Shown here one piece after another: positions 42,848 through 53,225 of a DNA stretch of 64,000 nt. Under the pieces are notes generated by a model, which was given only the letters and a program-made list of their open reading frames with translations, did no database searches and had not been told where the DNA came from. The stretch comes from Stegostoma tigrinum (lineage: Eukaryota). The stretch spans positions 2,418,001 through 2,482,000 of the forward strand of contig NC_081396.1 in the NCBI RefSeq assembly GCF_030684315.1. Reading direction: 5' to 3'. The translations under genes were made by a program, and so were the position numbers. The stretch's first letter is position 1, and every line of letters begins with the position of its first letter.

Positions 42848-44422
42848 ATGTCCAAACAACAGCACAATCACACTGGGGAGAGCCTTTTCAAATGTGGGAA
42901 TTGCGGGAAGGGATTTCTTTACCAATCCCAGCTGGAAAATCATCAACGCAGTCACACTGGGGAGAAGCCATTCACCTGCTCTGATTGTGGGATGGGATTC
43001 AGTCAGTCATCCAACCTGCGGATCCACCAGTGGGTTCACACAGGGGAGAGGCCATTGACCTGTACTGAATGTGGAAAAGGATTCACTCACTCATCCAAAC
43101 TGCTGGAACACCAGCGGGTTCACACTGGAGAGAGACCATTCACCTGCTCCATTTGTGGGAAAGCATTCGCGCAGTCATCCAACCTGCTGATACACCAGCG
43201 AATTCACAGGAGAGAGAAACCATTCACCTGTTCTGAATGTGGCAAAGGATTCACTCACTCATCTAAACTGTTGGAACACCAGGGAGCTCACACAGGGGAG
43301 AGACCATTCACCTGTTCTGAATGTGGGAAAGGATTCACTCACTCATCTAAACTACTGCAACACCAGCGTGTTCACAATGGAGAGAGGCCATTCACCTGCT
43401 CTGATTGTGGGAAAGGATTCACACACTCATCTAAACTGCTGGAACACCGGGGAGTTCACAGTGGGGAGAGACCATTCACCTGCTCTGCTTGTGGGAAAAA
43501 ATTCACTCGGTCATCCAGTCTGCAGATACACCAGCGAGTTCACACGGGGGAGAGGCCATTCACCTGCCCCAATTGTGGGAAGGCATTTGCTCAGTCATCC
43601 AACCTGCTGATACACCAACGAGTTCACACTGGGGAGAAACCGTTTACCTGCTCCCAGTGTGGGAAGGGATTCACTCAGTCATCCAGCCTTCGGATACACC
43701 AGCGAGTTCATACTGGGGAGAAACCATTCACTTGCTCTGACTGTGGGAAGGGTTTCACTTCGTCATCCAGCCTGTTGAAACACCAAGGAGTTCATACAGG
43801 AGAGAGAGCATTCACCTGTTCTGAATGTGGAAAAGCATTCATTCACTCATCTAAACTACTGGAACACCAGGGCGTTCATACTGGCGAGAGACCATTCACC
43901 TGTTCTGAATGTGGGAAAGGATTCACTCACTCATCTAAACTGCTGGAGCACCAGCGAGTTCACACAGGGGAGAGACCATTCACCTGTTCTGAATGTGGAA
44001 AAGGATTCATTCGCTCATCTAATCTCCTGGAACACCAGCGAGTTCACACCGGGGAGAGACCATTCACTTGTTCTGAATGTGGAAAAGGATTCATTCGCTC
44101 ATCTAAACTGCTGGAACATCAACAGGTTCATACCAGAGAGAAATCATTCACCTGCACCGCTTGTGGGAAGGGATTTACCCAATCATCCAACCTGCTGAGG
44201 CACCAGCGAGTACACACTGGGGAGAAACCATTCATCTGCTCTGATTGTGGGAAAGCATTCGCGCAGTCAACGATCCTGCTCATACACCAACGAATTCACA
44301 GGAGAGAGAGACCCTACACGTGCTCCGACTGTGGGAAGGGATTCACCCAATCATCCAACCTGCGGAGACATCAGAGAGTTCACGCTGGGGAGAAACATTC
44401 ATTCAGTCAACTCACCTGTTGA
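42848..44422 (+). CDS. C2H2 zinc-finger protein, 18 fingers, no KRAB
   Basis: Open frame from 42701 (GTG). First in-frame ATG at 42848. 18 canonical fingers. The true start may come from an upstream exon. Confidence 0.9.
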
Positions 44423-47612: not shown

Positions 47613-48621
47613 GATAATAAAATGTGAGGCTGGATGAACACAGCAGGCCAAGCAGCATCTCAGGAGCACAAAAGCTGACGTTTCGGGCCTAGACCCTTCA
47701 TCAGAGAGGGGGATGGGGGGAGGGAACTGGAATAAATAGGGAGAGAGGGGGAGGCGGACCGAAGATGGAGAGTAAAGAAGATAGGTGGAGAGGGTGTAGG
47801 TGGGGAGGTAGGGAGGGGATAGGTCAGTCCAGGGAAGACGGACAGGTCAAGGAGGTGGGATGAGGTTAGTAGGTAGCTGGGGGTGCGGCTTGGGGTGGGA
47901 GGAAGGGATGGGTGAGAGGAAGAACCGGTTAGGGAGGCAGAGACAGGTTGGACTGGTTTTGGGATGCAGTGGGTGGGGGGGAAGAGCTGGGCTGGTTGTG
48001 TGGTGCAGTGGGGGGAGGGGATGAACTGGGCTGGTTGAGGGATGCAGTGGGGGAAGGGGAGATTTTGAAACTGGTGAAGTCCACATTGATACCATATGGC
48101 TGCAGGGTTCCCAGGCGGAATATGAGTTGCTGTTCCTGCAACCTTCGGGTGGCATCATGGTGGCAGTGCAGGAGGCCCATGATGGACATGTCATCAAGAG
48201 AATGGGAGGGGGAGTGGAAATGGTTTGCGACTGGGAGGTGCAGTTGTTTGTTGCGAACTGAGCGGAGGTGTTCTGCAAAGCGGTCCCCAAGCCTCCGCTT
48301 GGTTTCCCCAATGTAGAGAAAGCCGCACCGGGTACAGTGGATGCAGTATACCACATTGGCAGATGTGCAGGTGAACCTCTGCTTAATGTGGAATGTCATC
48401 TTGGGGCCTGGGATGGGGGTGAGGGAGGAGGTGTGGGGACAAGTGTAGCATTTCCTGCGGTTGCAGGGGAAGGTGCCGGGTGTGGTGGGGTTGGAGGGCA
48501 GTGTGGAGCGAACAAGGGAGTCACGGAGAGAGTGGTCTCTCCGGAAAGCAGACAGGGGTGGGGATGGAAAAATGTCTTGGGTGGTGGGGTCGGATTGTAA
48601 ATGGCGGAAGTGTCGGAGGAT
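47613..48621 (-). mobile_element. Penelope-like element (family 1), 5'-truncated, with open GIY-YIG region and complete 3' repeat
   Basis: ILRHFRHLQSDP...NVVYCIHCTRCGFLYIGETKRRL...GINVDF, stop at 47929. 3' repeat ends ttattatc at 47613. Confidence 0.92.
47677..47704 (-). ncRNA. Minimal type I hammerhead ribozyme motif (intact core) in the PLE 3' repeat
   Basis: CTGATGA a GGG tctagg CCC GAAA c GTC. Confidence 0.6.
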
Positions 48622-48739
48622 ATGAGGAAAAAAATGAAAAGGGGGAGACATTGCTTTGCTGCCTGATGTTGCAGAGGATCGAGTCTCTTTCGTATCGCTG
48701 GAAGACTTTGTCATTGTTACGTTGGGGATGGACCTTCCC

Positions 48740-48990
48740 TGAAGCAGCCAATAGGAACCGCTGGTCCAGGCTGCAGACCAGCCGCGCAGAAGCAGGAGCC
48801 CCGCCCCCACCCATTGTTACCCACTCCGTCGCCGGGAAACAACGTTTCCAGGGCAACCGGCTGCTGGCTCGGGCCGGAGCGAGAAGCCGCTCGGGGAGCT
48901 GCTCCGCCCCCTTTCCGCGCCGACTGCTGCTCCAGAAAGAGACAGGTCGAGCCCGAGCATTGGCAGCAGCCGCCCCGCCTGCTCTGCACA
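48740..48990. promoter_or_regulatory. CpG-island promoter-like segment
   Basis: High CpG density, GC boxes (ccccgcccc, ccgcccc), CCAAT on both strands and an X-box-like gtttccagggcaac (48844-48857). Confidence 0.55.
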
Positions 48991-49023
48991 GCACCCCTCC
49001 AAAACCCCATAGAGGAAAGGGAG

Positions 49024-49235
49024 TGAGGAACTGCAGATTTTGGAGAATCCAAGATAATAAAGTGTGAAGCTGGATGAACACAGCAGGCCAAGCAGCATCT
49101 CAGGAGCACAAAAGCTGACGTTTCGGGCCTAGACCCTTGCTCTCTGATGAAGGTCCTAGGCCCGAAACGTCAGCTTTTGTGCTCCTGAGATGCTGCTTGG
49201 CCTGCTGTGTTCATCCAGCTTCACACTTTATTATC
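49024..49235. mobile_element. Mini PLE insertion made of two inverted terminal repeats, 13-bp TSD, hammerhead motif at 49144-49171
   Basis: Perfect 80-bp inverted arms 49053-49132 and 49156-49235. TSD agaggaaagggag at 49011-49023 and 49236-49248. Confidence 0.92.
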
Positions 49236-50079
49236 AGAGGAAAGGGAGAACAGTTTCAAAAGCCTCATTTTCGTCTAGGTTATGTGAGAGCACAGGGTTT
49301 GTGAATTTTCTTGACAAAGAAGAACCGCAACAAGCGCTCAAGCACAATCAGAAGGTGTATGGGATCAGGCCCTGACTGTGGAAGGATTGAGTTTAATTCT
49401 GTCTGTGGGTCAGACGTGGAAAATGTGTAAATAGGGAGCAAAGACCATAGAGAAATTTGAAAACAAGAATGGAAATTTTAAAATTGAGGCTTTGCTGAGC
49501 AGAGGGCCTTAAATTTCTCGAAATATTTATTGATGGATCGTAGGCATTGCCACTTGGAACAGCATTGATTTATCATATCAGGTGTTCTAGAGGTGCTGGG
49601 GCCATGGACCACATCTGTGATGTTTGACTGCCCAATGGGGAGGGGGCTGGGTAAATAAGAGGAACTTCTCTTGGAGTTGCAATGTGTTAATTTAGAACAG
49701 ATGTGCAACAAGAAACTGGCATTCACTCTTGTAACTATCGTCTTTTCTGTGGTCTTGTCTGAGCCCAAGTAGCTTGGGAGAGGGAGCATGCCATGTCCAC
49801 GAGTATGATTAATTCCTTCATAACCATTGAGCACTGCTGAAGCATAGACTCTGGGGATAACTTTCTGGATTAGTTGGAAAGGCTCCTGTTACTTTCCTTG
49901 GGCATTTTGTGCAGATTTTGTTTTCTTCGAATTTGCTTGAACAATATTTGGAGAATTGAAATGGGGAAGAATTTTCCACGAAAACTAGAATGATGTCTTT
50001 TTAACATGTATCCTTGACTGATAGTGAGACTGATGTTGAGAAAGTCTTTTTCCAATGTATAAAATGAGATCTCATTTTG

Positions 50080-50915
50080 GAGGGCATTGAGGGGTAGATG
50101 GGAATCTCAAATGAAACATTAAGTCAGGATCTTACAGGGTCACAAGATTCAGCAGAACCTGAATACCTGAAGGAGACAGTGGATCCTTTCCCACATTGGT
50201 GAATGGTTTCTCCCCAATGTGAATGCACCAATGAATTTCCAACCTAGCTGGAACATTGAATCCCTTCCCACAGTCAACACATTTCCACATTGCCCAATCT
50301 TCTTCATCTTGAGACTGCATATATGCTCTGACAGGTTAGATGATCAGCTGAAGCTTTTCTAAATGCAGAACACGTTCCTCTCTGCTCTGCAGGGTGCTTT
50401 CTCCTTACATGTTCAAAATCTAAAGTTATTCTAGCTATAATAGATTGGGCGAATTCATTAGATCCTGATGTGATGTTTGGTTTGAGCTTCCCCAACTGCA
50501 AATGCTCCTTTTCTTTACACCTTGTGAAACTGATTTCAATTTCTTTGTATTTATTCATGGGCCACCACTAGATTCACACTAGGGAGATGGTACTCAGCTG
50601 CTCTGATTGGGGGAAGCAATTCAGTCACACATCCAACCTGTTGCCACACCAGTGAGTCCACACTGAGGAGAGGCTGTTCACTTGCTCCGAGTGTGGGAAG
50701 AGATTCGATCAGTGATACACCCTCCTTAGACACCAGCACACTCACACTGGGGAGAGACCAGCCACCTGCTCCCAATGTGGAAAGGGACTCATTTGTTCAT
50801 TCCACCTCCTGAGACACAGATGGTGTCACGCTGGTGAGAGGCCATTCTCCTGCTCTGAGTGTGGAAAGAAATTCAGAGGCATCCCACCGGTTGAGTCGCC
50901 AGCAAGTTCACCAGC
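50080..50915. pseudogene. Chimeric ZNF pseudogene: plus leader, inverted paralog fragment, plus fingers
   Basis: Plus leader about 50080-50170, minus leader and finger (MWKCVDCGKGFNVPARLEIH) about 50180-50555, plus fingers about 50560-50915. Confidence 0.75.
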
Positions 50916-51230
50916 AACCGCACTAATGGGAACTTGATTATCAGTGATTAGCTCTGTACGTTGTTGATGCTGATAAATTTCCACCCGGTCATAGGTGTAT
51001 AAAATTCAAATACACCAGCTTTGTATTAATTACCAGTGTTTTTACCAGGTGTCCTGTTCATGTCTCCAACATGAGAGGTCCTTTTGAAACGTTATTCCTA
51101 CCCATCCCCACCCCTTCTGTCCTGACTCCTCCATCCCCACGACAGACAACAAGTGTGAGGTGCTCATGGATTTTCCTTGTCACTGAAATTGAGAAAATGT
51201 TCTCACTCTCCACTAGCCCAACAGGGATCT

Positions 51231-52189: not shown

Positions 52190-53225
52190 GATGCATGGCT
52201 ACTGAAGGGGGAATTTGCAGTTGAGACATTCAAATTGAATTCCATCTCCAGATCTGAAAGTTGTTTGATCTATTCTAATCTGAATATCGTTGTTCCTTGG
52301 ATGTGGAAGGGAAGGCGTTCATTCTGTTTGTCGACAAACATTTCAAATGTTAGTGAGACTGAAAATGTATTGAGACACACGTACATCCAAATGTGTCTTA
52401 GTGTTGTGACTGCGGAAATAGATTGAGCTATTTTCACAGTCTGTTAAAATATTTCCAAAGAACAAATAAGCCACATATTTGTTTTGTGTAAAGACAAGGC
52501 TTACATTGATCATCCAATCCGGCAAGGCACAAAAACACCCACACCATGGAGAAACTGTGAAAATGTGGGTTATGTAGAAAACCATTTAATTATCAATCAT
52601 GGTTTGATATATATCAACGCACTCATATTGGGCACATCACCATGGAGACACCATGGAAATGTAACGACTGCAAGGTAGGATTCGATTTTCTGCCCCAACT
52701 GGAAACCCTTCAGCGCGGTCGAGTTCAGTCCAGCGCCGGGGAGAAATTATGGAACTGTGAGGATTGTGGGAAGTGATTCTATTTCCATCGCAGCTGGAAA
52801 TAGATCTACACAGTCACCCTTGGGAGAGGACATTCAGTGCTCCATGTGTGGGAAGGGATTTGCAAAGTCAACCTGCCTTGTGTCACGAATGACTTTACAC
52901 CGGGGAGAGGCCATTCGTTTGCTCTATTTGTGAAAAAGGATTCACTTGGCCATCCACCGTCGTGTCACACCAGCAAATCCACACCAAGGAGAAACGTTCA
53001 ACTCCCCTTCTTGTAGAAAGATGTTCAGGTTTCCTTCTGACCTCAATGCAGACAAACAGGATCACACAGGGGAGTGACCTGTGCGACGGGATTTAGTAAG
53101 TTCTCTTTCCTCACAGAACAACAATGCCCTCACACTGTATTTTCAGCGCTCACCTGCTTCCCTGTGTGGGAAGGAATTCATTCAGTTGTCTGAACTGATG
53201 AAACATAAGCAAGATCATGGAGGTC
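52190..53225 (+). pseudogene. C2H2 zinc-finger pseudogene
   Basis: Leader remnant, ccatggagaaac starts and broken fingers (TGERPFVCSICEKGF). Confidence 0.8.

Follow-up and report, generated by a model that had tools for sequence, protein, structure and literature searches.

The window, a stretch of 64,000 nucleotides, contains at positions 49024-49235 an insertion of 212 bp that consists of two 3' ends of a Penelope-like element (PLE) placed head to head, with a 13-bp target site duplication (TSD) on both sides (Table 1). The duplicated 13-mer, AGAGGAAAGGGAG, occurs exactly twice within the window, at 49011-49023 and 49236-49248, in agreement with the perfect TSD reported in the first-pass annotation. 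The same annotation described an 80-bp inverted repeat around a 23-nt spacer holding CTGATGA; the segments 49053-49132 and 49156-49235 are reverse-complementary at 80 of 80 positions, and the spacer has the length and the motif given. The arms are perfect over these 80 bp, but not over their full homologous length of 86 nt (49053-49138 and 49150-49235), which includes two mismatches, so the term is valid only if the arms are ended before those mismatches. The tail, previously placed at 49027-49052, had to be corrected to 49024-49052 (29 nt). In the family as a whole the tail has a length of 33 nt and is bounded by two ATTATC end points.

The complete hammerhead core is present in the right arm only. 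Its stem II has at this locus a U-C mismatch (window positions 49154-49155) that is absent from the majority of the family, and the motif is a candidate ribozyme, judged by its sequence; an Rfam scan of the window returned nothing at gathering score. When folded as RNA, the palindrome gave z = -22, and none of 200 shuffles folded equally well. A transcript through the locus would, according to this prediction, pair into a stem of 80 bp and leave CUGAUGA in the region of the loop. The earlier proposal that such a transcript makes a hairpin which sequesters the ribozyme is therefore compatible with the predicted fold, but is not specific to this copy, as the same would apply to any such palindrome.

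Table 1. Features at and next to the palindromic insertion (window positions)
Feature	Position	Strand	Remark
Another copy of this family, truncated at its 5' end: GIY-YIG end and pLTR	47613..48622	-	99.9% identical to L105
CpG-rich host block resembling a promoter, with CCAAT at 48748, a GC box at 48800 and a possible donor at 48944	48623..49010	.	
Left TSD copy, 13 bp	49011..49023	+	Single copy at the empty site of organism C
PLE tail, 29 nt; 5-nt gap and 2-nt change relative to nearest copy L002	49024..49052	-	
Left arm: 3' pLTR end, begins at element position +10, without CTGATGA core	49053..49138	-	
Single G without a template in either arm; probable copy of the RNA cap	49139..49139	+	G-enriched at the same junction genome-wide
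Right arm: pLTR end, position 0 (start point) to first ATTATC, without tail	49140..49235	+	
Minimal hammerhead motif (CTGATGA ... GAAAC GTC), putative	49144..49171	+	From sequence
Right TSD copy	49236..49248	+	

The sequence of the arms corresponds to the 3' end of a retroelement, of which a near-full-length copy (L105) has an ORF of 1085 aa, flanked by a pLTR at both ends, as pLTRs in partial tandem arrangement would give. This ORF encodes an RT and a C-X4-C-X2-C motif in front of a C-terminal GIY-YIG domain; the corresponding profile matches (RVT_1, E 2.7e-5; GIY-YIG, E 0.004) are both below Pfam's curated cut-offs. A CX2-5CxxC motif upstream of GIY-YIG is described as common to Neptune, Nematis and Naiad (PMC8557442), and by that description the C-X4-C-X2-C motif points to a Neptune or Nematis PLE. 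The parent thus appears to be of the Neptune type, with Nematis also fitting the motif. Inverted pLTRs, a one-sided tail and a TSD are published PLE features (PMC3846280, PMC8557442), and the PLE origin first proposed for the insertion on these features is supported by the domains of the L105 ORF and by the survey of the family given below. In L105, a single open frame of about 58 codons (counted by eye) runs from the pLTR to the ORF start, through hammerhead, arm and tail, and precedes the frame of the main ORF.

In a contig from organism C, a related species that is about 10% diverged, window position 49010 joins directly to 49236 with one TSD copy (run X8, depth 8.4; letters 1-141 correspond to 48872-49010 and letters 142-393 to 49236-49483, the joint being taken from the coordinates of the contig record). 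As this contig skips the insert together with one copy of the TSD, it represents the empty site, and the insertion postdates the divergence from organism C. Contigs from two runs of organism A, possibly the source sample itself, span both junctions with 0 differences; an assembly artefact, which had been named as a possible objection, is contradicted as far as these contigs show. The label "very recent" is not supported: 11 of the 62 sister palindromes described below have arms that are identical across the same 80 columns, 0 differences in 80 bp bounds the divergence at <3.7%, and the insert differs by 2.4% from its nearest copy, a figure that includes the 5-nt gap in the tail, which could date from insertion itself. 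The insertion is probably among the younger copies of the family. The nearest copy, L002 (G000:C55:2354386-2354597), is located on the same contig at a distance of 113 kb and has the same junction, the same subfamily and the same stem II variant in the right arm only, together with a different TSD and unrelated flanks. The two may be insertions from one source, or a case of rare local re-mobilisation.

The exact head-to-head junction pattern was found in the genome with 8,302 forward and 8,435 reverse matches, and with 0 matches for the control. The total number of junctions is at least 8,435, a lower bound; extrapolation from the 66 places represented by the first 100 matches suggests about 11,000 in all. 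The first 62 of these 66 places, which are consecutive examples on C1, were used as the detailed sample, the composition of which is shaped by the search pattern since the latter restricts how far the arms extend. A TSD of 10-19 bp (mode 14) was present in 60 of the 62 palindromes, and a tail on exactly one arm also in 60. Their lengths are about 185-272 bp, and they include 47 distinct junctions. A non-autonomous family with one internal structure and shared descent was considered as a description of the palindromes and rejected, as the 62 loci show 47 distinct junctions and loci with one and the same junction span several subfamilies and both tail sides. The locus is real, but it is an ordinary example of a type of PLE insertion that is already known.

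The same layout exists at kb scale, with arms of one to several kb that are 98-100% identical (e.g. L103, L109, L110, L115). Palindromes of this layout that measure 3.5-6.4 kb and whose arms share 98-99.8% identity were encountered frequently (L103, L109, L110, L112, L115). A 200-kb census region on C10 (G000:C10:20000001-20200000; L047-L066) was not used for frequencies, because it falls in a tandem segmental duplication of about 96 kb that repeats the same element copies. In addition, satellite-like tandem arrays with units of 166-363 bp that include the element tail and ORF start were observed at G000:C1:104860933-104862784, 140329153-140330022, 165409521-165411438 and other places; their hammerhead content was examined for L179-L181 only.

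The inner end of the right arm falls at a point that recurs throughout the family. This point, position 0, is located 4 nt before the CTGATGA core, and copies were counted by an intact 30-mer from position 0 onwards. As many as 7,443 of 71,315 copies (10.4%) begin at position 0, i.e. without the genomic C in front, compared to 2,286 of at most 63,872 copies (3.6%) at control position -2. The base before position 0 is G in 71 of the first 100 matches, against 15 of 100 at the control (hand counts), much of this 71% being derived from the opposite arm in AG|CT centres. Among 34 copies with unique flanks, classed by hand with inverted, tandem and element-derived copies set aside, the preceding base is G in 20 (p = 1.6e-4 against 28%). 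Where neither arm supplies the preceding base, it is G in 16, T in 2 and A in 0 of 18 cases (p = 1.7e-6). Finally, TATTTAT is found at -30 of position 0 in 92 of 96 long copies, and also in the truncated copy adjoining the CpG-rich block.

An extra G at the 5' junctions of full-length L1 elements reflects the cap (PMC11702581). From the pile-up at position 0, the TATA-like box at -30 and the enrichment of an untemplated G, we infer that position 0 of the pLTR is a putative capped transcript start. The short palindromes would then be run-off products from the 5' pLTR of a capped transcript. Among single-arm copies with a TSD, the G is the last base of the TSD in 5 and an extra base in 3, and a search for a TSD in the 34 unique-flank copies found none in 22; the G is thus strictly untemplated only in a minority of single-arm copies. 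A cDNA-terminal C that pairs with a G in the target would give the same picture. The 5' pLTR of 30 copies that continue into the ORF start begins at scattered positions, in none of them at position 0. Penelope of D. virilis has a TATA-less internal promoter (PMC2377424), so that the TATA reading does not extend to PLEs in general. In an older subfamily (L073, L079, L081, L135) CTTTT replaces CTCT before CTGATGA, and at its junctions, too, a G adjoins the C-T run, as would be expected if transcription began at the same point.

The fixed 5' end could also be explained without a cap and with priming from both sides retained, if reverse transcription stops at an RNA structure or at the end of a processed (spliced or cut) RNA. 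RTs are able to add untemplated bases at any template end. The end in question immediately precedes a C-rich tract and is located at the 5' strand of hammerhead stem I, and for D. virilis an intron has been described that terminates where Helix I has its 5' end (PMC4209133). The explanation is opposed by the lack of an AG acceptor at position 0 and of a common upstream exon in the flanks, and by the hammerhead cut site being about 31 nt downstream of position 0. In addition, the TATA-like box is at the canonical distance and the added base is strongly biased to G. We consider this explanation rather unlikely.

The two arms of the insertion are not simply copies of each other. The tail is present in the left arm alone and positions 0-9 in the right arm alone; as each arm contains sequence that is missing from the other, reverse transcription of RNA is the likely origin of both, each arm having been primed on a different side of the cut. 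The two outer ends coincide with two ATTATC motifs, 33 nt apart. The Poseidon_Ac protein cleaves and extends both strands, and the tail is delimited there by two neighbouring RT start sites (PMC11167929); by analogy the ATTATC ends with their 33-nt spacing appear to match these two start sites. Of 60 loci in the sample, 20 have the longer 5' reach in the tail-less arm and 33 in the tail arm, and the remaining 7 have arms of equal reach. The arms agree in subfamily haplotype at 38 of the 62 loci, compared to a mean of 16 and a maximum of 25 under permutation, and differ at two or more diagnostic sites in 6 of 53 scorable loci; these discordant arms suggest that at times two RNA templates were used.

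We propose that the enzyme of the element reverse-transcribes RNA from both sides of a staggered cut simultaneously. One cDNA would start at the outer ATTATC and therefore include the tail, and the other would start at the inner ATTATC and lack it, both being templated on the 5' end of a capped transcript. The right-arm cDNA would run off the 5' end of the RNA and copy the cap, leaving the extra G, and the left-arm cDNA would stop, or be trimmed, 10 nt earlier. Host repair would then join the two inner cDNA ends. As the product has no TATA-like box, the model predicts a dead end that lacks a promoter. Taken as a whole, i.e. twin reverse transcription at a staggered cut, a capped start, cap-G run-off, joining by the host and an inert product, we regard this model as likely. 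In its widest form, the ~200-bp palindromes would be a fossil 5'-RACE library of a TATA-containing pLTR promoter, of which the capped RNA was copied, on its 5' pLTR, by priming of both target strands from the two tail sites, sometimes from two RNAs; the chances for and against this extension seem to us about equal. If true, a single step that uses uncut RNA as its template would account for three traits of PLEs, namely inverted pLTR, one-sided tail and TSD.

A palindrome would also result if a single cDNA reached the end of the RNA, snapped back and copied itself, with trimming at a later stage. Self-priming of this kind on an antisense template was proposed for the junction palindromes of PLEs (PMC3846280); it would agree with the many centres that are near-perfect AG|CT palindromes, with the predominance of arms concordant in haplotype, and with the 33 of 60 loci in which the tail arm is longer at its 5' side, since folding back would yield the same bias. 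However, it needs extra deletions to explain why the tail-less arm holds additional sequence, both here and in 20 of 60 loci, and among clean junctions this arm is longer by at least 3 nt in 10 of 38. Nor does copying of one arm from the other agree with arms of different subfamilies (6 of 53 loci), and the tail-less arm ends near a fixed ATTATC, as expected for a second RT start (PMC11167929). Overall, self-copying is improbable, and priming from both sides of the cut is preferred.

Alternatively, the mini-palindrome could be a mobile non-autonomous element, MITE- or retrozyme-like, that is copied as a unit. The exact junction of the locus has 16 occurrences, and L002 resembles the insertion in junction, subfamily and right-arm stem II variant while having a TSD of its own. 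These 16 occurrences, however, cover at least three subfamily backgrounds and have the tail on either side (12 and 4), which indicates that the junction was built anew rather than inherited from a mobile mini-element. The diversity of junctions (47 among 62 loci), the gradation in length into the kb-scale palindromes and the lack of a TATA-like box in the mini-palindrome also argue against mobility, which we consider very doubtful.

The host block to the left of the insertion has a CpG o/e of 0.72 and a GC content of 0.61. A CpG promoter had been noted beside the insertion; the CpG-rich block with its CCAAT and GC boxes is present, and its promoter role and direction are putative. Within the block, the sequence GTTTCCAGGGCAAC at 48846-48859 resembles an RFX X-box, although a pattern search for this motif did not match it. 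The window contains a C2H2 zinc-finger cluster (43061-44400, 50280-50920 and 52500-53200), in which one + strand frame at 43061-44380 encodes 16 fingers, whereas the finger exons that follow the insertion are degenerate. The CpG-rich block may drive a C2H2 gene on the + strand, and use of the donor at 48944 would place the insertion inside the first intron of this gene. Downstream, the C2H2 exon closest to the insertion (50560-50920) contains a stop.

A role of this copy as a functional source of hairpin RNA, with the CpG promoter driving it and endo-siRNAs against the family as its product, is hardly credible: its predicted 80-bp perfect stem, its position next to the CpG-rich block and possibly in a C2H2 first intron (given use of the donor) would suit such a role, but thousands of equivalent hairpins, besides many that are longer, leave little for one 80-bp copy to add and make a dedicated role unlikely, there is no sign of conservation or selection at a site that is empty in organism C, and the downstream C2H2 exon has a stop. 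Hairpin RNA from the locus would arise only by host read-through, and no dedicated function is predicted.

The single locus is ordinary, and the palindromes as a class are of modest importance. The contribution is at genome scale: the copies give evidence of a start, TATA-linked and probably capped, that is located 4 nt before the ribozyme, and of priming at both ends of the target. The extra G at the centre likely marks the capped RNA start and thereby hints at the copying mode of the element. The many near-perfect palindromes at kb scale are a far larger potential source of dsRNA, cruciforms and instability than an 80-bp stem.

A literature search, covering chiefly openly available papers, found neither this palindrome class in sharks nor a cap-derived G in PLEs. 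The closest relatives are insertions of EN+ PLEs (Pen2a_Av of Adineta vaga, PMC3846280; scheme in PMC8557442), which have the same inverted pLTR ends with a palindromic junction, and likewise a one-ended tail of 30-40 bp (33 nt here) and a TSD around the whole unit. In contrast to the Pen2a_Av insertions as described there, the palindromes reported here have no ORF between the arms, form a unit of only about 200 bp and are found in thousands of places; their TSD is about 14 bp, compared to 8-10 in A. vaga (PMC3846280). As far as consulted, these papers (PMC3846280, PMC8557442) do not link the junction to the capped start of a transcript.

Poseidon_Ac (PAc) of Anolis carolinensis, studied in vitro (PMC11167929), has the same two RT start sites that define the tail, with both strands cleaved and extended, and its template is uncut RNA with an intact hammerhead. 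It belongs to the Poseidon clade, whereas the present family appears to be Neptune-type, and, as far as consulted, PMC11167929 reports neither palindromic products nor run-off at the transcript start. The minimal type I hammerheads of PLEs (PMC4209133, PMC6765202) have the same CUGAUGA core, a short stem II and a palindromic minimal stem III, which is reported to need a dimer; at the present locus, in contrast, the whole core is in the right arm only and stem II is mismatched. Finally, in twin priming of L1 (PMC11702581) a second reverse transcription is likewise primed on the reciprocal DNA end with the TSD preserved, and full-length L1 5' ends have an extra G, as at the junction here. The two pieces of L1, according to that description, are adjacent and nearly non-overlapping parts of the RNA, whereas here both arms copy the same stretch, from fixed starts that are 33 nt apart.
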